A DNA stretch of 36,410 nucleotides from Gemmatimonadales bacterium (GCA_050733115.1 JBOHSC010000314.1:1-36410), one strand, 5' to 3'. Shown: positions 12,117-36,102, numbered from the stretch's first letter. A program made the numbers and translations. The notes: a model not told the origin generated them from the sequence alone.

Positions 12117-12282
12117 ATCTCGTTTCCTCTAGTGGCGTCGGCACTTCCCGAGTCGGATGCGCGCTCTCCGTCGCTTTATCGTGACCAGGCGCGGACCACG
12201 CGAATGTCGAGCCAATACACAGGTCCGTCGCGCGCGCGCGACAGTCGCAATTCGTACTCCAGAACCAGGGAATCAATCTGCG

Positions 12283-20801: not shown

Positions 20802-22630
20802 GCGCCTCCCCGTTCCTCGATCCGGGCGCCGTTCTGGCCGGACGCTACGAGATCGTCCGCGAGGTCGGCCGCGGCGGGTACTCGGTGGTCTACCTCGCGC
20901 GCGATCGTACGGTCGGCACCGACGTGGCATTGAAGCTCCTGGTGCCTCCGCCTGCCGCGGCTCAGGTGGCGCGGGAGCGGATGCGGCGCGAGGTGCAGGC
21001 CGTGCGCGGGCTCTCGCACCCCAACATCGTCGCGGTGTTCGATTTTCTCGAGGATGGTCCCTGGAGCTTCATCGTCATGGAGTACGTCGCCGGCCCTGAC
21101 CTGCAGATGCGGGTCCGCGAGCGGGGCCCGCTCGACGTCGAGCAGACCGTGCGGGTGGGACGAGACATAGCGGCCGCGCTGACCATGGCGCACCGCCGGG
21201 GCGTTCTCCATCGCGATGTGAAGCCGCCCAATCTGCTGCTCGACCCCGATGGACGCACCCGGCTCACCGATTTCGGCTCCGCGCGGCTCGATGGACAGCT
21301 CGGTGTAACCGGCACAGGCGCTCTGGCGGGCACGCTCGCGTACACCTCGCCGGAGGTTCTCGCCGGGCGACGGGGTGATGCGCGGGCCGACGTATACGCT
21401 CTCGGGCTGACGCTCTACTTCGCGCTGACGGGTGACCTCCCCGAGCGCCCTTCGCCGCACCTGCCGCCCGTCCCATCCGCCGATGGATTCCGCCCGAGCC
21501 GCGCATCATCGAAAGTTCCCCAATGGCTCGACGACGTGATCGCACTGGCTACGGCCGCCGCCGCCGAGAACCGGTTCCCGACGGCGGTCGCGTTGAACGA
21601 AGCGCTCGCATCGCAGGCGCCGGTTCCTCACGCAGGGACGGCGAATGGCGCGCCCTGCATGCTGTGCGGCGGCCCCGACCCGCTCGCGCTCGGGATCTGT
21701 CCCGCCTGCGGTGGCGGCGCACCGGAGAGCGCCGATACCCTCGTCATCATGGAACGGGAACGTGATCCGGCGGCGCGGCGCGCCGCGGCGCTTCGACTCG
21801 CGGTGGTGATGCCCGATCTGAGTGATACCGATCGCGCCGCCGCGGCGCTCGGTCGGCGCCCACTCTTTCGAGTACCGTCGGTGAGCGCGCCCAGGCTGGT
21901 GGACGAGTTGAGGCATCGTGAGCTGAGCTCACGGGCGCTTCCGGCCGGCCGCGCGCTTGACCTGGTGCCGGCTTCCTATTGGGCACTCGTGGCGGTGGTG
22001 ATCGCCGCTGGCGGCGCCGCAGGGATGATCGCCGCACCTCCGCTACTCGCCACGACACCGCTCGTCGGAGTGCTGCTGGTGCTTGGAGCGCGACGCTCGG
22101 CCCGCACGCCACTCGTGCTGCCGCCGGCGCGGCTCCACGCCCTCGCGCCCGCGGTAGAGCGCGCGGTGGTGCAGACGCTGGCCGAGCTGTCGCCGGGAAC
22201 CGCACGGAACCTGCTCGCCGATCTGGTCAGGATGTGCTCCGCGCTGAGCGCGCGCCTCGAGCGCACCGGCGACGATCGCGGTCTCGGCCCTACGCTCGCC
22301 GAGCTGCTGCAGGCCGGCTGTAGCGCGGCGACCGATCTGGCGCAGCTCGACGAGAATCTGGGCCGTTTCGAGCGTCAGCAGGATCAGCTCGCGTCTCTGC
22401 CGGAAGGATGGCTCGACACACTCGGCCGCTCCGAGCGGACGCGTGATGCGCTGGTACAGCGCCTCCTCGAGGCGATGACGGTCGTGGGGCGCCTGCAGGG
22501 CCAGCAGGCGGCGCTCGCCGGTGAATCCGACGAGACGCTGGCGGAGCTCATCCAGGAGCTCCGGCGCGAGTCGGACGCGCAGGGCGCGGCCGCGCGGGAG
22601 ATGAAGGAGCTTCTGCCCGGCGCGGTCTGA
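20798..22630 (+). CDS. Hanks-type Ser/Thr protein kinase with a CxxC..CxxC zinc-ribbon, TM segments and a C-terminal helical domain
   Basis: G-loop GRGGYSVVY, VALK lysine, catalytic loop HRDVKPPNLL, DFGSA and TSPEVL. The zinc-ribbon-like CMLCGGPDPLALGICPACGG lies at 21656-21709. A hydrophobic stretch is YWALVAVVIAAGGAAGMIAAPPLLATTPLVGVLLVLGA. The ~190-residue Ala/Leu/Arg/Glu-rich tail matches no domain I recognise. Confidence 0.9.
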   Translation: MSASPFLDPGAVLAGRYEIVREVGRGGYSVVYLARDRTVGTDVALKLLVPPPAAAQVARERMRREVQAVRGLSHPNIVAVFDFLEDGPWSFIVMEYVAGPDLQMRVRERGPLDVEQTVRVGRDIAAALTMAHRRGVLHRDVKPPNLLLDPDGRTRLTDFGSARLDGQLGVTGTGALAGTLAYTSPEVLAGRRGDARADVYALGLTLYFALTGDLPERPSPHLPPVPSADGFRPSRASSKVPQWLDDVIALATAAAAENRFPTAVALNEALASQAPVPHAGTANGAPCMLCGGPDPLALGICPACGGGAPESADTLVIMERERDPAARRAAALRLAVVMPDLSDTDRAAAALGRRPLFRVPSVSAPRLVDELRHRELSSRALPAGRALDLVPASYWALVAVVIAAGGAAGMIAAPPLLATTPLVGVLLVLGARRSARTPLVLPPARLHALAPAVERAVVQTLAELSPGTARNLLADLVRMCSALSARLERTGDDRGLGPTLAELLQAGCSAATDLAQLDENLGRFERQQDQLASLPEGWLDTLGRSERTRDALVQRLLEAMTVVGRLQGQQAALAGESDETLAELIQELRRESDAQGAAAREMKELLPGAV

Positions 22631-22679
22631 GCCGTGGTTCTGTGGTCGTGTCCGGACACTACCGGCTCTGTCGCATCCA

Positions 22680-22709
22680 TTGACACGCAAAACTTCGCAC
22701 TGCTGGAAT
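22680..22709 (+). promoter_or_regulatory. Candidate sigma70-type promoter for the ten-gene operon
   Basis: TTGACA (22680-22685), an 18-nt spacer, then TGGAAT (22704-22709), in a visibly less GC-rich 270-bp gap. This is pattern match only. Promoter consensus in this lineage may differ. Confidence 0.3.
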
Positions 22710-22943
22710 GTCGTGGGATCGCCACAACGATCTCCCGATTTCAGCGTCTGCAGGACCCTGCATCGACCATCCTTACCCCTCCCTCAAGCAAGCATCCTTC
22801 CGCGTGTTGCGGCTGCTCCACCACACATCCAGCATCTTCTGCCACCAGCACCTGCGGCTGGCGTACCTCTTGCCCCTTACAGCAGTTGCACAACGGAGAC
22901 AATGGCGAGACTGCAATCCTCTGCAATGGGGCGACAGCGACCG

Positions 22944-24161
22944 ATGCGCGTCATGCTGTTGAACTACGAGTACCCTCCGTATGGCGGCGGCGCCGGTGTA
23001 GCCACCGAGGCGCTGGCGCGCACGCTCGCGTCCCGCGGCGTCACGGTGGACGTCGTGACCGCCGGTGACAAGACGGAGTGCCAGTCCGAGCTGCTCTGGG
23101 ACGGCGACGCGGCCGAAGAGGGGCTACTCAACGTTCACCGGGTGCGGTGCCGCCGCACGTCGGTGCACCAGGCGAGCATGTTCGACGCGGCCAGCTATCT
23201 CTTCGCCGCGCTGCCGGTGATCCGCGAGCTGCTCGAGGCGGAAGAGTACGATACGGTCCACGTCTTCTTCTCGCTTCCGACCGGCGCGCTCATCCCGTTG
23301 CTCAATCTCGGCAAGACGCCGGTGATCGTCTCCCTCAGGGGCTCCGACGTTCCGGGATACGACTCGCACAATCGCAACCTCGAGCGGGCGCACGCACTGT
23401 TGCGTCCCTTTACACGCTGGATCTGGCGCCGCGCCGACCGTGTAGTGCCGGTGTGCGAGAGCCTTGGCCAGATGGCGGCGCGCACCCTGCCGAGCCTGGA
23501 CTACACGGTGATTCCCAACGGTGTGGACCTCGCGCGCTTTCACCCTCCGGCGTCGCGGCGGAACCGGCGCTGCGGACCAGTCCGCTGCATTGCCGTGGCG
23601 CGACTGGTGGAGCGGAAGGGGCTCACCGACCTGATACGCGCCATCGGCCTGCTGGAGCGAGGAAGCTACGAGCTCGAGATCGTCGGCACCGGGCCGGACG
23701 AGCATGTGCTTCGCGAGCTGGTGGCTGGCCTCCGGCTCGACGGCTTCGTGAAGTTCAGCGGTTCGCTCGACCGTGCCACCGTCGCCCGCCGGTACCGTGA
23801 CGCGGATCTCTTCACTCTCGCCTCCGTCGAGGAGGCGTTCGGCAATGTGTTCGCCGAAGCGCTGGCCTGCGGCCTTCCCGTCGTGGGCAGTGCGGTGGGC
23901 GGCATCCCCGACCTCGTCCAGCATGGCCGCAACGGCCTGCTGGTCCCGCCTCGTGATCCGTTCGCGCTTGCCACCGCCATCCGGCACCTCGGAGAGAATC
24001 CCGCGCTTCGCGCCGAGATCGGCCGCCGCAATCGGGCCCAGGCGGAGGCGACTCTTTCCTGGGATCGGATCACTACCCGGTACCTGTCGCTCTACAACGG
24101 CCTCCGCCGCCGCACTCCAGCACGTTCCCGCCTCGCCGAGCTGCCCTCGAGCTCCTGGTGA
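22944..24161 (+). CDS. GT4-family (GT-B) glycosyltransferase
   Basis: MRVMLLNYEYPPYGGGAGVATEALARTL is a typical GT4 N terminus. The E-x7-E region is EEAFGNVFAEALACGLPVVGSAVGGIPDLV. Alternative in-frame ATGs lie at 22902 (GGAG 3 nt upstream) and 22926. The ORF-track start at 22680 is rejected. Confidence 0.9.
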   Translation: MRVMLLNYEYPPYGGGAGVATEALARTLASRGVTVDVVTAGDKTECQSELLWDGDAAEEGLLNVHRVRCRRTSVHQASMFDAASYLFAALPVIRELLEAEEYDTVHVFFSLPTGALIPLLNLGKTPVIVSLRGSDVPGYDSHNRNLERAHALLRPFTRWIWRRADRVVPVCESLGQMAARTLPSLDYTVIPNGVDLARFHPPASRRNRRCGPVRCIAVARLVERKGLTDLIRAIGLLERGSYELEIVGTGPDEHVLRELVAGLRLDGFVKFSGSLDRATVARRYRDADLFTLASVEEAFGNVFAEALACGLPVVGSAVGGIPDLVQHGRNGLLVPPRDPFALATAIRHLGENPALRAEIGRRNRAQAEATLSWDRITTRYLSLYNGLRRRTPARSRLAELPSSSW

Positions 24162-25459
24162 GCGCGACGCTCGGTTTCTGGCTCGCGGCGGATGGGTTTC
24201 AGCTGCTCCGGGCTCCCCGACTGGCGCCCGACGCGCTCCAGTCTCTCTCGCGCCGCCGGCTCGCCCGCCTGCTCGCGGCAGCCGCGAGGACGGAGTTCCA
24301 TCGAGAGCGGCTCGAAGCGATCGGCCTCGACTCGAGGAGTTCGCTGCTCCACCTCGATCCCGAGGGCGTGCTTGCCTCGCTCGCTCCGGTCGGCAAGGCG
24401 GAGCTTCGGGCGGCGGGAACAGGAATGCTGCGTGGCGGGCGGATTCGGCCGGAGTGGATGTCTTCGAGCTCTTCGGGCTCGACCGGCGAGCCGTTTCGCG
24501 TCTACTACGACACGCGCGCCTGGGCCACGCTCAAGCATCTCGTGAAGCTCCGCGCCAGGGCGGCGTGTGGGGTCCGGCCGACCGATCGCGTGGCGCTCCT
24601 CGACGCGATCCCGCCGAGGCAGCGGCAGGGATTCGTTCGCGGCAGCCGCGTTGCCCGGATCAGCGTGCTGCAGCCGGGCGCGGCGATGGCCGAACAACTC
24701 GCCGCCTTCCGGCCCGACGCCGTCTACGGTCTTCCCTCGGCGCTGCTCGAAGCGGCGGCGGCGCTGCGCGCGCAGGGCCGGCAGCTCGTCATCGGGCGGG
24801 TGTTCACCAGCGGGGAGCTTCTGCGGCCGGCCGTTCGCGAGGCAATCGCGGACGCGTTTCAGGCGCGGGTCTTCGACATCTACGGAAGCTCGGAGACGAA
24901 GGAGATCGCGTGGGAGTGCGCCGAGGGCGGCATGCACGTGAATGCCGACGTGATCCGCCTCGAGGTACTCGACGATGAGGGCCGGCCCCTCCCCGACGGC
25001 GTCGAGGGAAATCTGGTGGCCACCTCGCTCGTCAATCACGCGATGCCTCTGCTGCGCTACCGGCTCGGCGATCGGGGCAGCATGCGTTCACACGCCTGTC
25101 CCTGCGGGCGGGCCTTTCCGCTGCTCGGCGTCGTGACCGGTCGCGCGGTCGATGTCCTTGTGCTCTCCGACGGGCGGCGGGTATCACCCTACGCTCTCAC
25201 CTGCGCCCTCGAGCGGGAAGAGTCACTGCTGCGTTACCAGGTGAGCCAGCTCGATCCGGCACGCCTGCGGGTGCGAGCCATTGTGGAGCCCGGGGCGCAG
25301 CGCAGCGCCGTTACCGATCGGGTGCGGGCGCTGATGCGGGCGGAAGTCGCTCCTTTCCTCGAAACCGACGTCGAGTTCGTGGACCATCTTCCCACCGGAC
25401 CGCGAGCCAAGTTCAGTGTCGTCCAGCCGCTGGCGGTGCCGGCGCAATCCCTCGGTTGA
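24158..25459 (+). CDS. Adenylate-forming enzyme, phenylacetate-CoA ligase (PaaK) / coenzyme F390 synthetase / CapK-like family, copy 1
   Basis: The GTG start overlaps the GT4 stop (GTGA at 24158-24161). The phosphate-binding motif SSSSGSTGEPF is at 24461-24493. The ~430-residue length and the N-terminal RRLARLLAAAARTEFHRERL pattern are typical of the family. Confidence 0.85.
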   Translation: MSATLGFWLAADGFQLLRAPRLAPDALQSLSRRRLARLLAAAARTEFHRERLEAIGLDSRSSLLHLDPEGVLASLAPVGKAELRAAGTGMLRGGRIRPEWMSSSSSGSTGEPFRVYYDTRAWATLKHLVKLRARAACGVRPTDRVALLDAIPPRQRQGFVRGSRVARISVLQPGAAMAEQLAAFRPDAVYGLPSALLEAAAALRAQGRQLVIGRVFTSGELLRPAVREAIADAFQARVFDIYGSSETKEIAWECAEGGMHVNADVIRLEVLDDEGRPLPDGVEGNLVATSLVNHAMPLLRYRLGDRGSMRSHACPCGRAFPLLGVVTGRAVDVLVLSDGRRVSPYALTCALEREESLLRYQVSQLDPARLRVRAIVEPGAQRSAVTDRVRALMRAEVAPFLETDVEFVDHLPTGPRAKFSVVQPLAVPAQSLG

Positions 25460-25473
25460 GGCGATAGCTCACG

Positions 25474-26442
25474 ATGATCCAGATACCGTCCGGCCGCGCC
25501 TTCCCGCGTGATCACTCCGGCGGGCGAGGGCGCGCGCGTCCGTTGCCCCATCCGCTCTCGCCGTACGAGGATCTGGTCGTGAACTTCTGCCCGACCGGAA
25601 TGATCCCGACAAAGGCGATGACGCCCCATGTGCCGGTGTCTCCGTCGGAGGTGATCGACCAGTCGTGCTCGGCGCTCGAGCGGGGCGTGGCCATCGTCCA
25701 TCTGCACGCGCGCGAAGCCGACGGCTCCCCGACGTATCGCGCCGAGATCTACGAGGAGATGATCCTCGGCATCCGCGGACACTTTCCCGACGCGATCACC
25801 TGCGTGAGTTGCAGCGGCCGGAACTTCCCCGAGCTCGAGCGCCGGAGCGAGGTACTGGAGCTGACCGGCGCCGCGCGCCCCGACCTGGCCAGTCTCACGC
25901 TTACCACGCTCGACTTTCCGACGGGAACGAGCCAGAACGCCCCCGACATGGTCATCGCGCTCGCGGAGAAGATGGTGGCAAAGGGGATCAAGCCGGAGCT
26001 CGAGTGCTTCGACTACGGGATGATCAATGCCGCGAACATGCTGATCGGGAAAGGGATGCTCGGAGAGCCGCCGTACTATTTCAACCTGCTGCTCGGCTCG
26101 CGCTACTCCGTGCCGGCGACGGCGAAGCACCTGTCCGGGATGATCGACGACCTGCCCGACGATTCGGTCTGGTCGGCGGCGGGGATCGGACTCTTCCAGT
26201 TGCCGATGAACACACTCGCCATCGCGATGGGCGGCCACACCCGGGTGGGTCTCGAGGACAACATCTTCCACGGATTCGATCGGGGCGAGCTGGCCACCAA
26301 TCAGGGCCTGGTCGAGCGCGTCGCGGACTTGAGTGAAACCTTCGGGAGGAAGCTGGCGACCCCGGCGCGCGCCCGTGCGCTGCTCGGCGTGGCGCCCTCG
26401 GCCGCGGCGATCGACCGCGTCCCCACCGCGGGGGCGCGATGA
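25474..26442 (+). CDS. BKACE-family enzyme (3-keto-5-aminohexanoate cleavage enzyme-like, DUF849)
   Basis: TIM-barrel start VVNFCPTGMIPTK. Zn-ligand H-x-H in AIVHLHARE (25699-25707). GGHTRVGLEDNIF contains the conserved Glu (26254-26256). The ~35-residue N-terminal extension is uncertain. Confidence 0.85.
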   Translation: MIQIPSGRAFPRDHSGGRGRARPLPHPLSPYEDLVVNFCPTGMIPTKAMTPHVPVSPSEVIDQSCSALERGVAIVHLHAREADGSPTYRAEIYEEMILGIRGHFPDAITCVSCSGRNFPELERRSEVLELTGAARPDLASLTLTTLDFPTGTSQNAPDMVIALAEKMVAKGIKPELECFDYGMINAANMLIGKGMLGEPPYYFNLLLGSRYSVPATAKHLSGMIDDLPDDSVWSAAGIGLFQLPMNTLAIAMGGHTRVGLEDNIFHGFDRGELATNQGLVERVADLSETFGRKLATPARARALLGVAPSAAAIDRVPTAGAR

Positions 26443-27782
26443 TCATCCGTGGGCCGGACCTCCTCGGAACGGTCAGCGCCATTCAGCGGCACATACGCGC
26501 CGATCGCGCCCAGCTCCAGACGTTTCAGGACGCCAAACTGCGGCGACTGCTCGTGCATGCCTACGAGCACGTGCCCTACTACCGGAAGCTGTTCGACCGG
26601 CAACGGCTCCATCCGCGCCACATCCGCGGCACGATCGATCTCGAGCTCATTCCGATCACGACCAAACAGGATCTCCGTGACCTTCCCCCTTCCGAGATCG
26701 TGACGAAGGGGGTCGATCCCTGCTCCCTCGTGTCGGTGCGCACCAATGGCTCCACGGGAGAACCGTTCGTCGTCCGCCGGACGGGGGTCGAGCAGGGCTT
26801 TCACACGATGTTCCGCCAGCGCGCGTACGAAGCGTTCGGCCTTGGGTTGCGCGGCCGTATCGCCGCGATAAGCTATCCGCGCCCCCGCCACCCGAGGGAC
26901 ACCAAGGTGGTGGGCCGCTGGCTGAGCGCCATGGGGGTGCACCCGACGCTCCGGATCGACGGCCTCCAGGATCCCGAGGCGATCGCCGAGCAGCTCGAGG
27001 CGTTCCAGCCCGATCTCATCACCGCGCTACCGGGCATGCTGCACCGCGTGGCCGATCACCTCGTCGACTCGGGAAAGGGCCGTGTCCGCCCGCGAATCGT
27101 GGTAGTGGGAGGTGAGGTGTTGACGCCGCTGGTCCGGCGCCGCCTGATCGAGGCCTTCGGCGTGGCGCCGCTCCAGACCTACGCCAGCCACGAGTTCCAG
27201 CTGCTGGGGTGGGAGTGCCGCACCCTCGGCGGCATCCACACCTGCGACGACGGGGCGATCGTCGAGGTGTTGAACGAGGGACGTCGGGCGCTGCCCGGCG
27301 AGGAGGGAGAGGTGGTTGCCACCAACCTTCACGCCTATGCGATGCCGTTCATTCGCTACCGCCTCGCCGATCTGGTCACCCGTGGCGCCGAGACGTGCGC
27401 ATGCGGGCAACCCTTCTCCGTGATCGGCGCGATCCGGGGACGGATGATCGACTACTTCCCGCTGCCGAACGGCAGGGTCGTGCATCCGTACCAGATTCTC
27501 CAGAGCCTCCAGCCGGGCGACGATACCTGGATCCGTCAGTGTCAGCTACTGCAGGATCGCCCGGACCGGGTGATCATGAGCATCGTGGCCGCCGGTGCAC
27601 CTGCGCCGGAGCTCGAGCGCCGCATCGTTGGCTCGGTGCAGCCCCTGCTGGGACCGGGAGTCGAATTCCAGATCCGGATCGTGGACGAGATCCCGCTCGA
27701 AGCCGGCGGCAAGTTCCGTCACGCGCGCTCGCTGATGGCCTCGGACTACGAGGCGGCGCCCGCGATCGCGCTGAATGGTTAG
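26439..27782 (+). CDS. Adenylate-forming enzyme, PaaK / F390 synthetase / CapK-like family, copy 2
   Basis: ATGA overlap with the BKACE stop (26439-26442). Motif TNGSTGEPF lies at 26742-26768, starting at codon 102 as in copy 1. The N-terminal pattern is KLRRLLVHAYEHVPYYRKLF. Confidence 0.85.
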   Translation: MIIRGPDLLGTVSAIQRHIRADRAQLQTFQDAKLRRLLVHAYEHVPYYRKLFDRQRLHPRHIRGTIDLELIPITTKQDLRDLPPSEIVTKGVDPCSLVSVRTNGSTGEPFVVRRTGVEQGFHTMFRQRAYEAFGLGLRGRIAAISYPRPRHPRDTKVVGRWLSAMGVHPTLRIDGLQDPEAIAEQLEAFQPDLITALPGMLHRVADHLVDSGKGRVRPRIVVVGGEVLTPLVRRRLIEAFGVAPLQTYASHEFQLLGWECRTLGGIHTCDDGAIVEVLNEGRRALPGEEGEVVATNLHAYAMPFIRYRLADLVTRGAETCACGQPFSVIGAIRGRMIDYFPLPNGRVVHPYQILQSLQPGDDTWIRQCQLLQDRPDRVIMSIVAAGAPAPELERRIVGSVQPLLGPGVEFQIRIVDEIPLEAGGKFRHARSLMASDYEAAPAIALNG

Positions 27783-29088
27783 CCTCCTCGAGCGGCTCGA
27801 AGGGGGCACGGCTCCCTGGCTCTTCGTCCACAGTGTCGAGCGCGCTTCCGAGCGCGCCCTCGTGCTGGCGCGTCCTCAGGACATCGTCTGCGTCAGCGAC
27901 GAGGTCGAGCCGGCCTATCTCTCCTATCTCGCCGAGCTGGGGCTGGGCCCGGCCCCGGACCGGGTCGTGCCGATGTCGCGCTTCGGCGACCGGTCGCCGG
28001 GGCGAGCGCTCTGGGCCCGATTGGCGGAAAACACCGAAGCCCTGCGTGCGGTCGGGTCGCTCGTGCGCGAGGGTGGCCCCTCCCGGCTCCATCCATTCAT
28101 CGCCTCGCGCGGCTCTTTCGCTCTGGCCGCGGCACTCGAGATCGCCGCCGACACCGAGGTTCGCGTGGCCGGCGGAGACCCCGCGATCGTAGAATACGCC
28201 GACCAGAAGCACAACATTCGCGAACGCGCCATCGCCCTCGGCATTCCGGTGGCCGACGGCGAGGTGGTCGAGCTTGCGGTGGCGGGCGGGCGACGGAAGC
28301 GCGACTATGACGCACTGCGCCATGCCGTGGAGCGGAGGCTGGCCCAGACGGGGCGCGTGCTGGTACGGGGATCGCACGGCACCGGCGGGTCGGCGACGCA
28401 CATCGTGGGCACCGGCGGGACCGACGTCCACGGACTGGTGCGGAACCTCTCCGATCATGTCGAGAATCGGGTCTACCTGGTCGAGACGATGGTCGCGGCA
28501 ACGGTGTCTCCCAACGTGCAGCTCCACATCTCACCGGCCGGCGGGCCGATCACCTGCGTCGGCGTGACCGACCAGCGTTGGGAGCGCCGGCTGGTGAATG
28601 GAGGAAATCTCTTTCCATCGGCGTCCCACCTGACGGCCGCGATGGTGGAGTGGTCGTACCGGATGGCGGGGTGGCTGCAGGAGGCGGCATACTCCGGGCT
28701 GCTGGGACTCGACTTCGTCGAGTACGCCGATCCGGGCACCGGGGAACTCCGCGCCTTCCTCGCGGAGGTGAATCCCCGGGTGGCCGGCGACACTTATCCA
28801 TTGGCGCTCTTCGAGCGGCTCAACGCCGCCCAGCGGCGAGCCGGGCGTCCGGAGAGCGGCGCCTTCGTATCGGGCACCATCGAAACCCGGCCGCGCCGAT
28901 TCGCAGAATTCCACCGTGCCGCCGACCATCTTTTCTATTCACCCGCTACCGGGTGCGGAGTCGTGCCGCATCACGTGGGGTCGCTCGGCCGCGGAAAGTG
29001 CGGCGTAGTAGTCTTCGGGCCGACGCGAGACGCCGTACTGCGCTCATATGGGGAGCTGCAGAGCTGGTGCAGGCGGGAGGGACAATGA
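27775..29088 (+). CDS. ATP-grasp superfamily carboxylate-amine ligase with an N-terminal pre-ATP-grasp-like region
   Basis: It overlaps the previous gene by 8 nt (ATGGTTAG). ATP-grasp landmarks are DQKHNIRERAIALGIPVADGE, RVLVRGSHGTGGSATHIV, VYLVETMV and GLLGLDFVEY...FLAEVNPRVAG. Confidence 0.7.
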   Translation: MVSLLERLEGGTAPWLFVHSVERASERALVLARPQDIVCVSDEVEPAYLSYLAELGLGPAPDRVVPMSRFGDRSPGRALWARLAENTEALRAVGSLVREGGPSRLHPFIASRGSFALAAALEIAADTEVRVAGGDPAIVEYADQKHNIRERAIALGIPVADGEVVELAVAGGRRKRDYDALRHAVERRLAQTGRVLVRGSHGTGGSATHIVGTGGTDVHGLVRNLSDHVENRVYLVETMVAATVSPNVQLHISPAGGPITCVGVTDQRWERRLVNGGNLFPSASHLTAAMVEWSYRMAGWLQEAAYSGLLGLDFVEYADPGTGELRAFLAEVNPRVAGDTYPLALFERLNAAQRRAGRPESGAFVSGTIETRPRRFAEFHRAADHLFYSPATGCGVVPHHVGSLGRGKCGVVVFGPTRDAVLRSYGELQSWCRREGQ

Positions 29089-30104
29089 CTTCCGCGGTCA
29101 TGCCGCTCCCGGCACGGCGATCGCTGCTCGCTGCCGTCGAGGAGCGCTTTCTCGTGCGGAGCTACGCGTCGCCGAGAGCGGGGGCGTGGGTCGCGGTGCA
29201 CGACGCGCTGGCGTTCCCGTTCCAGATGCGTGGAGATATGCGTCGTTCGACGGTCCGCACCGACGAGGGAACACTGCGAGTGGTAGAAATCGGACGCGGC
29301 AAGCACACGGGGCCGTTCTGTGCCCGGCTCCTCGGGTCGCGAGCGCACGGTGCGGGCGACGGCGCGCGGCCGCTTTGGAGCCCGGCCGCGCTGGCCGACG
29401 TCGACGCCGATCTCGTCCTGGCGGAGATTCATCGCTGGATGGCACCCCGCTTCCGGCGCGCCGGGTGGCTGGTCGTGCCCGACTCGATAAGGTGGCATGG
29501 CGATCTCACGCGCTGCCCGCCCTCGCGCGCCACGCCGAGCCTCAAGGCCGATCTGAAAAAGGTGAGCCGGTATGGGTACACCCTGGAGTCCGCCGGCACC
29601 TCACAGGACTGGGCGGAGTTCTACGGCAGCATGGTGGTGCCACAGGCGCGCGTTCGTTTCGGGGAAGCAGCGTGGATTCCGAGTGAACGGCTGCGGAGGG
29701 AGCTGGCGGCGCGTGGCACACTCCACTTCATCCTTCGCGACGGAGCCCCGGTGGCGGGTATCTGCTCGGTGCGCACCGGCTCGACACTCTGGCTTCCGGT
29801 GATGGGGCTCCGGCAGAGCGATGCGAACCTGCTCAAGGAGGGTGTCTACTCCGCCGCCTTCTCGCTCCTGTTCGACTGGGCAGCCAGGCAGGGATGCACG
29901 CAGGTGGACGCCGGCCGCACGTCGGCGTTCACACTCGACGGCGTACATCGGTTCAAACGAAAATGGGGGCTCGAGCCCGTGGCCGATCCGCTGAGCCACC
30001 TGATTGCCGTACGCGCCGGCTCTACGGCGCTGCGCGCGTTCGCGCACCAGCCCGTCCTCGTCGACCGCGGGAGTGGGCTGGCCGCATTTCCGGAGGCCGA
30101 GTGA
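29085..30104 (+). CDS. GNAT-fold acyl/aminoacyl transferase, FemAB/CelD-like (Acetyltransf_6-type)
   Basis: ATGA overlap at 29085-29088. The C-terminal half (HFILRDGAPVAGICSV...LLKEGVYSAAFSLLFDWAARQGCTQVDAGRT...GVHRFKRKWGLEP) follows the FemAB/CelD-like pattern, including the ..FK.KWG.. signature. Confidence 0.65.
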   Translation: MTSAVMPLPARRSLLAAVEERFLVRSYASPRAGAWVAVHDALAFPFQMRGDMRRSTVRTDEGTLRVVEIGRGKHTGPFCARLLGSRAHGAGDGARPLWSPAALADVDADLVLAEIHRWMAPRFRRAGWLVVPDSIRWHGDLTRCPPSRATPSLKADLKKVSRYGYTLESAGTSQDWAEFYGSMVVPQARVRFGEAAWIPSERLRRELAARGTLHFILRDGAPVAGICSVRTGSTLWLPVMGLRQSDANLLKEGVYSAAFSLLFDWAARQGCTQVDAGRTSAFTLDGVHRFKRKWGLEPVADPLSHLIAVRAGSTALRAFAHQPVLVDRGSGLAAFPEAE

Positions 30105-30784
30105 GCGTCCGCAGCCGACTCCTGCGTTTTGCCGGCCACTGGCGCGGCTTTCCTGGCGAGGCACGACGTGCCTATCGGGTGGGCGGCATGAGCGAGCTAC
30201 GGCAGCTCGTTGCCGACCGGTCGGTGCATCTCCTCTTCCGCCGGGACCGCATGGTGGTGGTGGCGCAGGCACTCGACTCGGTGCGCGACGCCGCCACGCC
30301 TGAAGGGGTGACGATCACCAGCGGCACCCGAGAGGACATCGGCCTCCTCACTGAGCTGGCGAGCGCCCGCGACATCCAGCTCTTTCGCGGACGGCACGAC
30401 GCGGGCCGCACCTGTCTCCTTGCATGGCGTAACGGGCGGCCGATCGGATATACGTGGCTCAGTGAGCGGATGGGGCCGGACGTGACCGTATGCACGCTCC
30501 CACTGCCCCCCAACGCTGCCTACCTCTACGATCTCTTCGTCCTTCCCGCGGAGCGGAGCTCCGGCGTCGGCTCGGCGCTGGTGAGCGCCCGGCTCCGGCT
30601 GGCCCGCGATCGTGGATTCACCGAGGGGTGGCGGATGATCTCGGTCGGGAATCATGCGTCGTTCAGGACGGTCGAGAAGACCCGTGGCCCGGGGACGAGA
30701 GTCGTGGGCGAGATGCGGTATCTGAAGGTGCTCGACAGGATCTACCCCCGATTCACGCCATGCAGCACGACCGGGGCCCAGTGA
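30101..30784 (+). CDS. GNAT-family N-acetyltransferase
   Basis: GTG start in a GTGA overlap (30101-30104); an alternative ATG is at 30189. The acetyl-CoA binding motif A is YDLFVLPAERSSGVGSALVSARLRLARDRG (about 30533-30620). Confidence 0.75.
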   Translation: MSVRSRLLRFAGHWRGFPGEARRAYRVGGMSELRQLVADRSVHLLFRRDRMVVVAQALDSVRDAATPEGVTITSGTREDIGLLTELASARDIQLFRGRHDAGRTCLLAWRNGRPIGYTWLSERMGPDVTVCTLPLPPNAAYLYDLFVLPAERSSGVGSALVSARLRLARDRGFTEGWRMISVGNHASFRTVEKTRGPGTRVVGEMRYLKVLDRIYPRFTPCSTTGAQ

Positions 30785-31914
30785 CCGCGGGCGTGCTCGG
30801 TGCGGCCGACCGCCTGACCGGCGAGGAGTGGAACGCGCTCGCCCGGCGCGGCTTCTCCCTTCACCGGTGGCACGCGGCGGCAGAGGCGAGCGGGTGGCGA
30901 CCCCGCCACGTCGTGGTGCGCGACGGCCAATCGGTGCTGGCAATCGTGCCCGCATACCTCCTCGACGGCGGCGCCGCGCTCGACATTCATGATCGCTGGC
31001 TCGGACCGCTCGGCCCCGCAATGGCGGCAGCCGGCCTCCGTTTTCGACCGACGATCTCCGTGGGCGCGCCGTGCTCCACCACCAGCTCGTGGCTTGGCGA
31101 TCTCGAGGCGCTCCCCGAGACGGTGATCGAACAGGTCTTCGCGGCGCTGGAGGCTCAGGCGAGGGAGGACGGGGCACGCGCCGTGGTATGGCCGTTCGTG
31201 GATGAGCGGCACCAGCACCTTCGTGAGGTGGCACGCCGCGGGGGATATCTTGACTACTATGCGGGCTCGACCGCGCGGGTTCCGGTCGCATGGCCCTCGT
31301 TCGACGATTACCTGGCGAGCCGCTCGAAGAGTCTCCGCCGCACCGTCCGCGCCGAACTCAAGTGGCTGGACGAGCGTGCTATCCGCACTGCCATGACTCC
31401 CGACTTCCGGGCGCAGGCTCCCGCTATGGCGGCGCTGTACGCCTCCACCAGTGAAGATCACCGCGGCCGCGCGGCGGCCGTGCCCTCGATTCTTTTCACG
31501 CACCTCGCCGAGCAGCCCACCCCGGGGCTCTGGGGGCAGCTCACCTATCACGACGACCGACTCGTGGGTTCCAGCATCTCGGTCGCCGCCAGCGGCGTGA
31601 TGGAGGGAACGTTCGCGGCGTTCGCGCCGGGATTCCTGGCCGGGCCGGTATATCACAACGACCTGGTGTACGAGCCGCTGCGCGTGGCATGCGCCGAGGG
31701 GATGACGGCTCTCGATCTGGGGCCGACGGCGCTCTATCCCAAGGTGCTGCGAGGCGGCCGCTTGGTGCGCCGGCGCACCCTCGTCCGGGGAACCTCACTC
31801 CTCGTACAAGGGGCGCTGCGCATGCTCGGACCAGTGGTTGCGCGCCGGACCGAGTGGAAGGAGCGGCGCGCTCTCGAGGCGCTCGGCACACTGGAGACGC
31901 TGACCGACGCATGA
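30781..31914 (+). CDS. FemAB-like / DUF482-type GNAT-fold protein ('peptidoglycan biosynthesis/recognition' family)
   Basis: GTG at 30781 forms a GTGA overlap with the upstream stop; an in-frame ATG at 30760 is the alternative. The patterns EEWNALARRGFSLHRWHAAAEASGWRPRHVVV..., FDDYLASRSKSLRRTVRAELKWL and LDLGPTALYPKVLRGG resemble that family. The assignment is from memory. Confidence 0.6.
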   Translation: MTAGVLGAADRLTGEEWNALARRGFSLHRWHAAAEASGWRPRHVVVRDGQSVLAIVPAYLLDGGAALDIHDRWLGPLGPAMAAAGLRFRPTISVGAPCSTTSSWLGDLEALPETVIEQVFAALEAQAREDGARAVVWPFVDERHQHLREVARRGGYLDYYAGSTARVPVAWPSFDDYLASRSKSLRRTVRAELKWLDERAIRTAMTPDFRAQAPAMAALYASTSEDHRGRAAAVPSILFTHLAEQPTPGLWGQLTYHDDRLVGSSISVAASGVMEGTFAAFAPGFLAGPVYHNDLVYEPLRVACAEGMTALDLGPTALYPKVLRGGRLVRRRTLVRGTSLLVQGALRMLGPVVARRTEWKERRALEALGTLETLTDA

Positions 31915-33353
31915 CCAGCATCGATCTGTCGATCCCGGCGCCACGCCGGGCCAGCCTGCTCCAGCGGATTGCCGCCTATTCGGCGAGCCGCGGTGTCACC
32001 GAGGGGTTGCTCGGCCTGCGCGGCATTCTGCTCGCCACGGTGCTGGGCCCGGCCGGATTCGGTGCGTGGGCGCTCCTCCGGCTCTCCATGCGATACTCGA
32101 TGTTCGGCGCGCTTGGTGTCTTTCGCGGGCTCGAGCTGGAGTCGCTCGCCGCCCGCCGGCGCGACGAGCCGGGTGAGGGCGCTCCCGCCGGGGCGGCGCT
32201 GGGGTTCATTCTCGCGGAATCGGGGACGCTGGCGGGCATAGCGCTCGTCGCGTCGTTCGTAGTGCCCGATCCGTCGCATGCCATGGTCCTCAGAGGCTTC
32301 GCGGCGGCGGTGGTGTTTGAGCAGGCGTACACCTATGCCCTCGTCTGGACCCGGGTGCGGATGACGCTCCGCCGTTACGCTTCGCTCGAAATGGTCAACG
32401 CCGCGCTGCAACTCGTCTGCGCGGTCTCGCTGGCGGCGGTGTGGGGGCTTCCCGGGGCGTTCGGCGGGATGGCGCTGGCCAGCGCCCTGGCGCTGCTGCT
32501 CGCCGCGAGCTGGGTCGAGTTCCGGCCCGCGATTCGCATCGCGCCGCTGAGGCGGTTGCTCGGCGTGGGCATCCCGCTCACCGTCTCGATGCTCCTCGCC
32601 ACCTCCCTCTACACCGCCGACCGCTGGATCGTGGCCGCGTTCGGCGGTGCGACGCTGCTCGGCTACTACGCGCTTGCTGCCTCGGTGGCCGACGTCACCG
32701 GATCGTTCGCCTGGGTGGTGCGAACCGTCGTATTCCCCGATGTGTACGGCCACGCGCAGTCGTCGGGCGCGGTTGCGGCGCTCAATCGGCATTTCGACCG
32801 GGCCGTGCTCCCCTTTGCGCGACTCTATCCTCCGCTCCTCGGCGCGCTGGCTTGCCTCCTCGGTCCCGTGGTGGCGCTGGCAGTGCCGCAGTATCTCCCC
32901 GCCATCGCCCCTGCGAAGATCTTCCTCGTGAGTGGTGCCGCGGCAGGTCTCGTGAGCCTGGCCGCCGTCGGTGCGGTCGCGGCAGGCCGGCATCGCAGTC
33001 TGCCCTTTCTCTCGGCCGGCGGCCTGGTCGCGAGCGTCACCCTTTCACTCCTCGCGATCCGACTGGGCCGGGGTCTCGAGGCAGTGGCGGGGGCGGCGTT
33101 CACCGGCCAGGTCCTCTACGCGGCGGGGATTCTGTGGCTTACCTGCCGAGAGGGTCAGCGCACCGACACCGCCGCCTTCCTTCGGAGTGCGCTCCTGCCG
33201 CTCGGATGGTGCATGACGTCGGTGCTGCTGGTGGGCCGGCTCTTTCCCGGCAACGACCTCGCATCGGCGGCGCCTGCCTTTCTCGTCTACCTGGTGTTGA
33301 TCCTTCCGCTTGCGCCGGTAATCAGACGCGAGTGGGCGGCGGTCCGGAGGTAG
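31911..33353 (+). CDS. MOP-superfamily oligosaccharide flippase (Wzx-like polysaccharide biosynthesis protein)
   Basis: ATGA overlap at 31911-31914. It is a ~480-residue protein of a dozen or so hydrophobic helices. The N-terminal GLLGLRGILLATVLGPAGFGAWALL pattern is typical of Wzx/PST flippases. Confidence 0.8.
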   Translation: MTSIDLSIPAPRRASLLQRIAAYSASRGVTEGLLGLRGILLATVLGPAGFGAWALLRLSMRYSMFGALGVFRGLELESLAARRRDEPGEGAPAGAALGFILAESGTLAGIALVASFVVPDPSHAMVLRGFAAAVVFEQAYTYALVWTRVRMTLRRYASLEMVNAALQLVCAVSLAAVWGLPGAFGGMALASALALLLAASWVEFRPAIRIAPLRRLLGVGIPLTVSMLLATSLYTADRWIVAAFGGATLLGYYALAASVADVTGSFAWVVRTVVFPDVYGHAQSSGAVAALNRHFDRAVLPFARLYPPLLGALACLLGPVVALAVPQYLPAIAPAKIFLVSGAAAGLVSLAAVGAVAAGRHRSLPFLSAGGLVASVTLSLLAIRLGRGLEAVAGAAFTGQVLYAAGILWLTCREGQRTDTAAFLRSALLPLGWCMTSVLLVGRLFPGNDLASAAPAFLVYLVLILPLAPVIRREWAAVRR

Positions 33354-33356
33354 CCG

Positions 33357-34205
33357 ATGGCGCGCGCCCGGGAGAGACTCTCGGTGGTGGTACTCACTTC
33401 GATTCCGCTCGGAATCGAAGTCACCGCGGCGCTGAGAGCGTTGCCCGAGGTGGGTCAGCTGACCCTTTTCTCCGCCCCGGCGATACCGCACCAGACGACG
33501 GCCTCGTTGATCCGGACCACTTGGCGCCACGAGGGAATGCGAGGCCTTCTCGATGCCGCGCTCCGGAGGGCACGGAAGGCGGCACGTCTCCAGGAGAACC
33601 GCAGTCCAGCGGCGCTGGCCGCACGGCGTTGTCCCAACGTCGCCCACTTCCCGATGGCCCAGTTTCATTCCGATGCGTGCCGCGCCCGAATCTCCGGGCT
33701 CGCTCCCGATCTCGGCGTGGTGGTGGGCACCCACGTCCTGAAGGGCGATCTCTTCACCATCCCACGCCTCGGCTGCATTAATCTCCACCTCGGCGCCGCG
33801 CCGGAGTTTCGCGGCTCGTCACCGGGGTTCTACGAGCTGCTGGAAGGGGTGCCCGAGGCCGGCGTCACCATCCATCGCGTGACCGATACACTGGACGGTG
33901 GCGACATCCTCCTTCAGGAGCGCTTCCCCCTCGAGACCGCCCCCGATGGCGACCCCGTGGACTATCTGCGCCGATACCTGGCCGAGGTGCTCTGCCCGAA
34001 CGGGGTGCGCATGATGGCGGCGGCGGTTGCGGCGATGGCCCATGGAACGCAGACCGAACGGGTCCAGGATGCCGCCGCCGCCCGCACCTACCGGCGAGCC
34101 ACATGCGCCCTCAAGCGCGAGTTGAGGCAGCGGGTCGCCGAACGGAGGAAGGGCACGCTGCAGGCGCCGGTCGGGAGGTTGACATACGGCTCGACCGAGC
34201 CGTAA
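33357..34205 (+). CDS. Formyltransferase-family protein (Fmt/PurN/ArnA-N-like)
   Basis: GGAGG at 33346-33350, 6 nt before the ATG. Catalytic Asn/His are in CINLHLGAAPEFRG (Asn 33780-33782, His 33786-33788). Asp is in VTIHRVTDTLDGGDILLQ. Confidence 0.85.
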   Translation: MARARERLSVVVLTSIPLGIEVTAALRALPEVGQLTLFSAPAIPHQTTASLIRTTWRHEGMRGLLDAALRRARKAARLQENRSPAALAARRCPNVAHFPMAQFHSDACRARISGLAPDLGVVVGTHVLKGDLFTIPRLGCINLHLGAAPEFRGSSPGFYELLEGVPEAGVTIHRVTDTLDGGDILLQERFPLETAPDGDPVDYLRRYLAEVLCPNGVRMMAAAVAAMAHGTQTERVQDAAAARTYRRATCALKRELRQRVAERRKGTLQAPVGRLTYGSTEP

Positions 34206-34433
34206 GTTCAGTTCAGGCGACCCAGTGCGAGAAATGCCGATGCCGATATCTCACCCAGTGATGTCCCTTTGCCCTTGTAGCTGTCCTGTCCGCATGCGGA
34301 CCGGAGGGTAGGCGCAGCCGCACATTGACGTACCATGTTTTCCAGTCGATGGCCGCGTCCTCCTACCGGAGCTCGCGGCCGATTTCATCTCCAGTACTGA
34401 TGTTCCATTGCAAGCATGCCTGAGGAGGCTTCC

Positions 34434-35327
34434 ATGGGAGCAGCACAAGCGGTCAGGCCGGTGGTTCCGATCGACCAGCGGGGGTATGTACATCCCGAGG
34501 TCCTGGTCTCGACCGACTGGGCAGCCGCCCATCTCAACGACCCGAAGGTCCGCCTGGTCGAATCGAATGAAGACATCCTGCTCTACGATACGGGGCACAT
34601 CCCGGGAGCGGTCAAGCTCGACTGGACCACCGACCTGAACGACTCTGTCATCCGCGACTACATCGACCGCGACCGGTTGCAGAAGTTGCTGCGGTCGAAG
34701 GGGATCAACGACGACACGACGATTGTGCTTTACGGAGACAAGAACAACTGGTGGGCTACCTACGCCCTCTGGGTGCTTCAGCTCTTCGGAGTGGAGAACG
34801 TGAAAATCCTCGATGGCGGGCGCCTGCGCTGGGCGGAGGAAGGACGGAAGCTCACCACCGACACGCCGGCCTACGCCGCGGGCAACATCACTCTCGGGGA
34901 GCGTGACGACACGAAGATCCGCGCCTTCCGCGAGGAGGTGCTGGACCATTTGAAAAAGAAGGGACAGCTGGTGGACGTGCGGAGCCCCGAGGAGTTCAGC
35001 GGCCAGCGCACGCACATGCCCGAGTACCCGCAGGAGGGAACGCTGCGCGGCGGTCACATTCCGGGCGCCAAGAGCATTCCCTGGGCCAAGGCGGTGGACC
35101 CCGACACCCATACTTTCCGGTCCGCGAGCGACCTGAGGAAGCTGTACGAGCAGGACAACAGCCTGAACAAGAAGGAAGAGACGATCGCCTACTGCCGGAT
35201 CGGGGAGCGCTCGTCGCATACGTGGTTCGCGCTCACCTACCTGCTCGGCTTCGACAACGTGCGGAACTACGACGGGTCGTGGACCGAATGGGGCAATGGA
35301 GTGCGCCTGCCGGTGGAAAAGTCGTAA
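34434..35327 (+). CDS. Thiosulfate/3-mercaptopyruvate sulfurtransferase (tandem rhodanese domains)
   Basis: The ATG at 34434 is preceded by GAGGAGG (34422-34428). The active-site loop is [13 protein letters not shown]. The overall pattern ([20 protein letters not shown]..., [11 protein letters not shown]) is like actinobacterial CysA/SseA-type sulfurtransferases. Confidence 0.9.
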
Positions 35328-35331
35328 CCCT

Positions 35332-36102
35332 CTAGGGCCGGCCGGCCCTGATGGCCTTCGGCAGATCGGTGACGATGCCCGCCACCCCCCGCGACCACAG
35401 CGTCCGGGCGGTGGCGGTGTCATTCACGGTCCAGACGTGCACCGGGCAGCCGAGCCGGCGGGCCGCAGCGACGAAGCGGGCCGTCGGGACGGTCAGCATC
35501 CGGTGCTTCGTCGGGACGGAGAGAAGGCGGTAGCGCACGGGGGGGCTGCCCAGCCTCAGCAGGGAGGCGCGGTAGAGGGCGGAGATCTCGGGGCCCGACG
35601 CGGCGCAGACGAACGGGGGCTCCCGGAAGAGCTCCAGCGCCTCGGCGTGCTCGGAAGCCACCACGCACCGCTCCGTGGCCCCTTCCGTCACCAGTACCCG
35701 CTGCACGGCGGCCTGCACTTCCGGCTCCTTCACCTCGATCAGAACGGGCACTCCGGGGAATGCCCAGAGAACCTCGCCAAGCGTCGGGATGCGGACGCCG
35801 GTGGCACGGAAAGGAAAGGTGCGACCCTGATCGGGGGTGAATCGATAGCCGGCGTCCACCGAGCGCAGGTCCGCGAGAGTCTGCGCGCGCACAGGGCCGG
35901 TGTGGTCGGTGGTGCGTTCGAGGGTGGCGTCGTGCATCACCACCGGCGCCCCGTCGCGGCTGAGCCGGACATCGAGCTCGAGGGCGTCGGCGCCCTCCTG
36001 CACAGCCCGCTCGAATGCCTGGAGGGTGTTCTCGGGCGCGCCACCAGACGCACCGCGGTGTGCGATGACGAGCCTGGCATCGAGATCGAGTAACGGGTTC
36101 AT
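35332..36102 (-). CDS. Glycerophosphodiester phosphodiesterase (GDPD family), cytoplasmic type
   Basis: The ATG at 36102 gives MNPLLDLDARLVIAHRGASGGAPENTLQAF..ELDVRLSRDGAPVVMHD, the GDPD catalytic motifs. The longer ORF-track N terminus is R/G-rich and is rejected. The start overlaps the upstream gene's stop (ATGA on the minus strand). Confidence 0.9.
   Translation of the reverse strand: MNPLLDLDARLVIAHRGASGGAPENTLQAFERAVQEGADALELDVRLSRDGAPVVMHDATLERTTDHTGPVRAQTLADLRSVDAGYRFTPDQGRTFPFRATGVRIPTLGEVLWAFPGVPVLIEVKEPEVQAAVQRVLVTEGATERCVVASEHAEALELFREPPFVCAASGPEISALYRASLLRLGSPPVRYRLLSVPTKHRMLTVPTARFVAAARRLGCPVHVWTVNDTATARTLWSRGVAGIVTDLPKAIRAGRP

Follow-up and report, generated by a model that had tools for sequence, protein, structure and literature searches.

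Two FemX-like tandem-GNAT transferases and a classical GNAT in an accessory, variable nine-gene island of Gemmatimonadales

The DNA considered here is a stretch of 36,410 nucleotides (nt) from a Gemmatimonadales bacterium (GCA_050733115.1 JBOHSC010000314.1:1-36410), referred to below as the window, meaning the whole stretch that was analysed. At its centre of interest are three consecutive transferase genes on the plus strand, coding for a FemX-type tandem-GNAT transferase (Fem1, or P0001; 29085-30104, 339 residues), a classical GNAT N-acyltransferase (P0002; 30101-30784, 227 residues) and a second FemX-type tandem-GNAT transferase, of the PF04339/COG3146 family (Fem2, or P0003; 30781-31914, 377 residues). 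The trio forms part of an island of nine genes (24158-34205), which lies between a core GT4 glycosyltransferase gene and a rhodanese gene. Start and stop codons overlap by 4 nt at the trio's junctions (ATGA at 29085, GTGA at 30101 and at 30781, ATGA at 31911). The three open reading frames (ORFs) have a third-position GC content of 0.81-0.82, like the neighbouring genes, values typical of coding sequence in a window of 68% GC, and the frames are coding. Separately called homologues in a related locus (L001) measure 336, 227 and 392 residues, respectively, and a database protein (P0004) is identical to Fem2 over its 377 residues. The overlapping ORFs listed in an earlier, sequence-only reading of this DNA are thus all present on the plus strand, as are the motifs that it quoted: GVHRFKRKWGLEP corresponds to residues 286-298 of P0001, and LPAERSSGVGSALV contains the coenzyme A (CoA) loop of P0002. 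No hydrophobic or transmembrane segment occurs in any of the three proteins.

The sequence-only reading had named Acetyltransf_6, FemAB and DUF482 as assignments to be separated, and profile searches do separate them. Fem1 passes the Pfam cut-off for Acetyltransf_6 (PF13480) narrowly, at 24.1 bits against 22 over residues 157-292, and gave no match to PF04339 in the Pfam scan. P0002 is an ordinary member of Acetyltransf_1 (44.8 bits against a cut-off of 20.7; E 1.8e-11). Fem2 matches both FemAB_like (PF04339, formerly DUF482; COG3146), at 49.2 bits against a cut-off of 27, and Acetyltransf_6, at 32.3 bits; its PF04339 match spans only profile positions 28-277 of 369, which marks it as a divergent member of that family. 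The GNAT affiliation proposed earlier therefore stands for all three proteins, the two Fem proteins being double GNATs, while neither of them belongs to the canonical FemAB family PF02388. Fem1 and Fem2 are not recent paralogues, as they share no BLASTP similarity and their families align by hhalign in the C-terminal domain only (E 0.056). A prediction in the earlier literature that PF04339/COG3146 represents a pterin-dependent enzyme had already been invalidated. Both Acetyltransf_6 passes were reproduced in a genome-wide search. The strongest Acetyltransf_6 match of the genome (88 bits) belongs to a separate open frame of about 600 residues (G000:C26:7423-7842; L006:1315-3150, minus strand), which adjoins a DegT/PseC-like sugar aminotransferase and is probably part of another glycan locus.

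Searches of PDB sequences, whether by single proteins or by profiles, returned nothing significant for Fem1, Fem2 or the neighbouring ATP-grasp protein, so that comparison of folds alone was informative. AlphaFold2 models, built with alignments of 40 and 43 sequences, gave predicted local distance difference test (pLDDT) values of 91.0 for Fem1 and 88.4 for Fem2, and both contain two tandem GNAT domains. When the models were compared with the PDB by Foldseek, the first 19 matches of Fem2 (FemX, Sbb17/Sba18, MprF) and the first 23 of Fem1 (FemX, Sba18, MprF) were all aminoacyl-tRNA-dependent double-GNAT enzymes. The best match of Fem2 is Weissella FemX (7z6a; E 3.9e-13, probability 1.0), with a query-normalised template modelling (TM) score of 0.57-0.60, and its highest target-normalised scores are those with Sbb17/Sba18 (0.72-0.75; 0.75 for Sbb17, 9wqx). 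Fem1 is closest to FemX 4ii9 (E 1.1e-10, probability 1.0). Tandem GNATs that use acetyl-CoA (VipF, Eis and the clavulanate tandem GNAT) are also significant, yet they rank lower and have lower TM scores. FemA of Staphylococcus aureus (1lrz) appears only at rank 32 of the Fem2 list. The coiled-coil arm of the staphylococcal Fem proteins, which Benson et al. 2002 are said to describe as a helical hairpin of about 60 residues in domain 2, had been suggested as a feature to look for. It is absent here, as no such hairpin interrupts domain 2 in either model; helices reach at most 23 residues in Fem1 (173-195) and 26 residues in Fem2, where the longest is basic and C-terminal (340-365).

A conserved CoA loop of the form [QR]xxGx[GA] is found in neither Fem family. 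P0002, which has an N-terminal extension of about 95 residues, contains a single such loop, RSSGVG at residue 152. Both Fem proteins possess an invariant lysine, which the models place in the connection between beta5 and beta6 of domain 2. That of Fem1, K291, is preceded by F290, lies in the motif D-G-x-x-x-x-K-R-K-W-G and is retained in 40 of 40 family members; that of Fem2, K321, is invariant in the family alignment. Key residues of the donor site in characterised enzymes include the catalytic K305 of FemX and F328-K329 of DhpH-C (PMC12945691). By motif and by topology in the models, F290-K291 of Fem1 resembles these residues and may be their equivalent.

The other genes of the island, all on the plus strand, code for a varied set of enzymes. 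The first is a PaaK/CapK-like adenylate-forming ligase (24158-25459), which matches Pfam AMP-binding and remains below the cut-offs of the NCBIfam DVU_1553-family and PaaK-like models. It is followed by a member of the beta-keto acid cleavage enzyme (BKACE) family (25474-26442; Pfam BKACE, E 9e-78; Kce-like, 241 bits against a cut-off of 382), a second PaaK/CapK-like ligase (26439-27782), whose nearest PDB sequence is the phenylacetate-CoA ligase 2y27 (E 5e-24), and an ATP-grasp ligase with a pre-ATP-grasp domain and PGM1-type architecture (27775-29088; Pfam PreAtp-grasp, E 1e-10). Downstream of the trio lie a Wzx-like flippase or exporter of the MOP family (31911-33353), with Pfam Polysacc_synt and Polysacc_synt_3 matches and at least 10 hydrophobic segments, and a formyltransferase of the Fmt/ArnA N-domain type (33357-34205; Pfam Formyl_trans_N), the last gene of the island. 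In the PDB, the latter is nearest in sequence to Met-tRNA formyltransferase and ArnA, the alignment being confined to residues 104-247. It carries a hydrophobic N-terminal segment (residues 8-26), is devoid of the C-terminal tRNA-binding domain of Fmt and may be membrane-anchored. Five kinds of amide-bond-forming enzymes are mixed within the island.

Upstream, the core GT4 gene (about 22902-24161, plus strand; Pfam Glycos_transf_1 and Glyco_transf_4) has an uncertain start, its homologues being 405-406 residues long, and no NCBIfam model reaches its cut-off on the product. Its stop codon overlaps the start of the first PaaK-like gene (GTGA), a translational coupling to the first island gene which suggests that the island acts on the GT4 product. 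The downstream flank is a gene for a protein similar to rhodanese and 3-mercaptopyruvate sulfurtransferase (34416-35327, plus strand), conserved at a median identity of 80%. The orthologue of this rhodanese in one genome of the same genus (G019:C65:7263-8159) contains one in-frame TGA, which could be a sequencing error, a mark of a pseudogene or a selenocysteine codon. A low-molecular-weight thiol pathway, consisting of a BshA-like GT4, an MshD-like tandem GNAT and the rhodanese, was considered and rejected: the BshA cut-off is passed by a different gene elsewhere in the genome (G000:C39, 324 bits), this GT4 reaching only 121, no BshC was found, and the rhodanese is a flank that is kept with or without the island. 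A scan for promoters and terminators (22400-35600) gave nothing above shuffled expectation. Elsewhere in the window, and unrelated to the island, are a fused trehalose-6-phosphate synthase/phosphatase (GT20 and Trehalose_PPase; 7967-10171) and a galactose-oxidase-like Kelch/Big_1 protein of 1037 residues (12157-15270).

The grouping of these genes is conserved beyond the window. Species-representative genomes were scanned with the Fem2 alignment, which yielded 44 loci, and the window proteins were mapped on them by tblastn. All the related loci derive from metagenome-assembled genomes (MAGs); the titles of the 44 name Gemmatimonadales or Gemmatimonadaceae, apart from one that reads Gemmatimonadota. 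Fem1 and Fem2 have many homologues, and wherever a match carries a source name, that source is Gemmatimonadales. Since the loci were chosen through Fem genes, Fem2 is present by construction, and the counts that follow cover loci with sufficient flanking sequence. A Fem1 homologue adjoins Fem2 in 19 of 25 loci, and 27 of 32 contain the GNAT, proportions which argue that their adjacency is not due to chance. Similar linkage was observed for the first PaaK-like gene and the GT4 (22 of 26 each), the second PaaK-like gene (23/30), BKACE (20/27), the formyltransferase (15/25) and the rhodanese (18/21). The ATP-grasp and flippase genes, proposed in the sequence-only reading as partners for phylogenetic profiling, are linked as well (21 of 31 and 17 of 26 loci, respectively). 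The same neighbourhood was recovered in three loci fetched through Fem1 homologues, so the transferase genes are not scattered singly; the exception is a distant Fem2 clade of 40% identity (L043, L045, L048), which occurs in other contexts.

Conservation is uneven along the locus. Across the loci, the transferases, the ATP-grasp protein, the flippase and the formyltransferase are about 50% identical, against 67-80% for the flanks, a disparity that is compatible with diversifying specificity as well as with deep allelic classes. BKACE is the best-conserved product of the island (median 82%, compared with about 50-63% for the others), exceeding even the housekeeping flanks, and it is missing from the variants of the Mur-ligase type. 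It may act on a common metabolite, for instance acetoacetate or acetyl-CoA.

The island as a whole is accessory. Of 251 genomes sampled across the phylum, 9 carry a Fem2-like gene; 6 of the 9 are among 17 genomes of the window's genus, its own genome not counted. Two genomes of the same genus without the island (G125, G031) have the GT4 directly abutting the rhodanese, which identifies 24158-34205 as a unit of insertion or deletion between conserved flanks. This unit is combinatorial in its make-up. Fem1, Fem2, the ATP-grasp ligase, the flippase and the formyltransferase are each absent from some variants, while others gain a second ATP-grasp, an AsnB-type amidotransferase, a second GNAT or a MurF-like ligase devoid of the UDP-binding N-domain. 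Among the variants with the MurF-like ligase, one type (L004, L022, L034, L037) lacks Fem1 as well. In the Fem2 tree such changes recur in separate clades. The window belongs to a fully supported clade of six members, in which no gene of the set is missing and the trio is arranged as Fem1-GNAT-Fem2; in other clades Fem1-Fem2-GNAT is the commoner arrangement. No consistent rule was found across the variants that relates the number of Fem genes to that of capping or PaaK-like genes. One rearranged variant, from the Gemmatimonadota MAG (L044), carries three GNAT genes, an AsnB-type amidotransferase and two ORFs of 414 and 297 residues without a family match. In another locus, gene calls indicate a BKACE-PaaK-like fusion (L059:4402-6669, 755 residues) and a GNAT-formyltransferase fusion (L059:10893-12410, 505 residues), either of which could be a real Rosetta-stone link or an assembly frameshift.

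Fem1 also represents a much larger group of proteins. Its family profile matches 2316 representative clusters at E <= 1e-3, of which 1685 remain at E <= 1e-10. When ten of the more distant clusters were scanned, six had no Pfam match of any kind and one matched Acetyltransf_6. One distant relative, P0329 (840 residues), consists of a Polysacc_synt_3 flippase (10-326) fused to a Fem1-like domain (523-830), which aligns with P0001 over 236 residues at 32% identity (E 3e-22) and retains the lysine as Y-K. Some other distant Fem1-like proteins are fused to a methyltransferase.

Taken together, these observations are consistent with the trio being the transferase sub-module of an accessory island that builds, without the ribosome, a short N-capped peptide or an aminoacyl decoration on the glycoside made by the GT4, a reading to which we assign a probability of roughly 0.45. 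The island would be co-transcribed with the core GT4 and would probably act on the product of that enzyme. Each of the soluble proteins Fem1 and Fem2 would most likely pass an aminoacyl residue, with aminoacyl-tRNA as the probable donor, to an amine or hydroxyl group on a glycosyl-peptide under construction, with the invariant lysines (K291 and K321) acting in the donor site. The middle GNAT, using acetyl- or acyl-CoA, and the formyltransferase, using formyl-tetrahydrofolate, would cap free amines; the PaaK-like and ATP-grasp ligases and, in variants, the MurF-like ligase or AsnB would make amide bonds through carboxylate activation; and transport of the product across the inner membrane would fall to the Wzx-like protein. 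The reality of the genes, the folds and family scores of their products, the conserved linkage and the limits and variability of the island are direct results of the analysis. That tRNA is the donor, which acceptor is used, in what order the steps follow and where the product ends up are inferred; the use of aminoacyl-tRNA, in particular, is suggested by the nearest folds of the models, the missing CoA loop and the invariant lysine. Two fusions lend support to the scheme, namely that of P0329, which links flippase and Fem1-like functions as in MprF, and the GNAT-formyltransferase fusion, which links the capping enzymes. The sequence-only reading had envisaged the addition of two residues followed by an acetyl cap. 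The product of the middle gene is indeed an acetyl-CoA GNAT of the ordinary kind, and capping of an amine would be within its reach; the scheme itself is not a fixed one, as gene order varies by clade and either Fem gene can be absent.

Several observations weigh against this proposal. Neither Fem protein matches PF02388 at E <= 1, nor does any protein in the genome-wide search, and no characterised member or function of PF04339/DUF482/COG3146 was found in the literature. The TM score of Fem1 with FemX is only 0.40-0.43, so that its arrangement of domains may differ. In the weak hhalign comparison of the two families K291 and K321 are not aligned, and K321 is at most a putative counterpart of the FemX lysine. 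The Fem proteins have an isoelectric point of about 10, but so does the plain GNAT, and the value is therefore uninformative on RNA binding; in the window, tRNA genes, aminoacyl-tRNA synthetase paralogues and Rfam or other RNA elements are all absent. The island contains no aminotransferase or deacetylase able to create a sugar amine. Of 26 loci, 9 have no Wzx, and of 25, 10 have no formyltransferase, and export by flipping is thus not obligatory. Finally, the two PaaK-like ligases and BKACE could instead supply CoA-thioester donors.

This last point is the starting point of the strongest alternative, which we regard as possible yet doubtful, namely that Fem1 and Fem2 are tRNA-independent N-acyltransferases. 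The PaaK-like ligases and BKACE, which lie directly upstream, would then make unusual acyl-CoA or beta-aminoacyl-CoA thioesters or acyl-adenylates, to be moved to the acceptor as is done by MshD and Eis. Those two tandem GNATs use acetyl-CoA, and the BKACE family interconverts beta-keto acids and acyl-CoAs. The significant Foldseek matches to acetyl-CoA tandem GNATs would agree with such a role, as would the failure of both proteins to match PF02388 and the uncharacterised state of PF04339. It is weakened by the lack of a conserved CoA pyrophosphate loop in either Fem family and by the ranking of the folds, since the best are all tRNA-dependent and Fem2 reaches TM scores of 0.57-0.60 with them, compared with 0.37-0.49 for the acetyl-CoA tandem GNATs. 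Moreover, PaaK-like and Fem-like genes show no covariation in number among the variants.

An unlikely alternative, somewhat less probable than the preceding one, concerns the product rather than the donor. Instead of a glycoconjugate of the membrane or surface, the island might make a soluble small molecule, such as a peptidyl-amino-sugar, a short N-capped peptide antibiotic, a siderophore or an osmolyte, with the MOP-family protein serving as its exporter and not as a flippase for a lipid-linked substrate. A patchy, strain-level distribution of the kind seen here is typical of secondary-metabolite clusters; no polymerase, chain-length, priming-transferase or nucleotide-sugar gene occurs among the ORFs of the window; about one variant in three has no flippase; and the nearest precedents (Sba18/Sbb17, DhpH and the argolaphos proteins AlpC, AlpF and AlpO) are natural-product enzymes. 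Against these stand the fixed site between conserved flanks and the cassette-like variation, which resemble surface-polysaccharide loci, the P0329 fusion, which points to a membrane-bound substrate, and the translational coupling to the core GT4. As for canonical peptidoglycan branch-peptide transfer to lipid II or UDP-MurNAc-pentapeptide, the similarity to the FemX fold and the MurF-like ligases of some variants are far outweighed by the missing PF02388 match, the accessory distribution (9 of 251 genomes), the neighbours (GT4, PaaK-like, BKACE, ATP-grasp, Wzx and formyltransferase genes instead of mur or fts genes) and the lack of the UDP-binding N-domain in the MurF-like proteins, and this role, rejected as the principal interpretation, is highly improbable.

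The variability of the locus may be taken a step further, although more tentatively. The stretch between the GT4 and the rhodanese would then be a hypervariable cassette locus, in which interchangeable enzymes of the Mur-ligase, ATP-grasp, PaaK, AsnB and Fem types build strain-specific, N-capped short peptides on a glycosyl scaffold, presumably lipid-linked, to give an envelope molecule that resembles a peptidoglycan stem, depends partly on tRNA and is not peptidoglycan. As part of the same tentative proposal, Fem1 would represent a large family of aminoacyl transferases that is mostly unannotated by Pfam.

Fem-type aminoacyl-tRNA transferases are known from peptidoglycan bridges, from lipid aminoacylation and from a handful of Streptomyces antibiotics. 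In the present locus, which belongs to an uncultured phylum of soil bacteria, two divergent Fem-type enzymes share a cassette-like island with four other amide-forming classes. If both the tRNA dependence and the glycosyl acceptor are true, the ribosome-independent use of charged tRNA would be extended to a new class of envelope or secreted glycopeptides, and the island variants would provide a naturally occurring combinatorial collection of enzymes to study. Because six of the ten more distant Fem1-like clusters scanned are without a Pfam match, a first activity for the Fem1 family would annotate many genes (about 1,700 clusters at E <= 1e-10); PF04339/COG3146 likewise has no assigned function.

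No description of the island as a system was found in the literature, and its components are best considered beside their nearest known counterparts. FemX of Weissella viridescens shares with Fem1 and Fem2 the double-GNAT fold, a similar size and the lack of a coiled-coil arm, and it is the best or a near-best Foldseek match of both; the invariant lysine that each of the two has in its C-terminal GNAT domain may correspond to that of FemX. It differs in sequence, with 11-14% identity in structural alignments and no PF02388 match on the side of Fem1 and Fem2, and in its context of peptidoglycan synthesis, a context not shared by the island genes, so that UDP-MurNAc-pentapeptide is excluded as an acceptor on this ground. 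The double-GNAT fold is also that of MprF, the aminoacyl-phosphatidylglycerol synthase, which pairs a transferase with a flippase, an architecture mirrored by the P0329 fusion. The island flippase, however, is of the Wzx/Polysacc_synt type and not an MprF membrane domain, the island transferases are separate and soluble, and the analysis gave no evidence of a phospholipid acceptor for Fem1 or Fem2. The FemAB protein of XrtA/PEP-CTERM loci (TIGR03019) is likewise an Acetyltransf_6-type double GNAT in a glycan-type locus. The analogy drawn earlier with exosortase/PEP-CTERM loci fails beyond this likeness, as the TIGR03019 score is 19 bits against a cut-off of 260 and no exosortase (PF09721) was found in the 80%-complete genome.

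Further counterparts come from natural-product pathways. Enzymes of the Orf11/Sba18 type add glycine, in a Gly-tRNA-dependent manner, to the amino sugar of streptothricin-like antibiotics (PMC12945691), which is the kind of sugar aminoacylation that the sequence-only reading had suggested. The peptide synthases Sba18 and Sbb17 (PDB 9wqw, 9wqx, 9wqy; BD-12 Orf11-type) have the highest target-normalised TM scores with Fem2, although their identity to it is 17-18%, the profile E-value is about 1, and their Streptomyces antibiotic clusters differ in content from the island. The argolaphos cluster codes for AlpC (ATP-grasp), AlpF (PF13480) and AlpO (COG3146), which have been proposed to form peptide bonds (PMC8976061), and thus brings together the same ATP-grasp, Acetyltransf_6 and COG3146/PF04339 families as the island. 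It belongs, however, to a Streptomyces phosphonate pathway, the roles of AlpF and AlpO are only putative, and GT4, BKACE, PaaK-like, Wzx and formyltransferase components are absent from it. Judged by their folds, Fem1 and Fem2 resemble transferases of the FemX, Sba18 and MprF types; judged by their sequences, they lie outside both the FemAB family proper and the PEP-CTERM FemAB family and are new, divergent members of known superfamilies.

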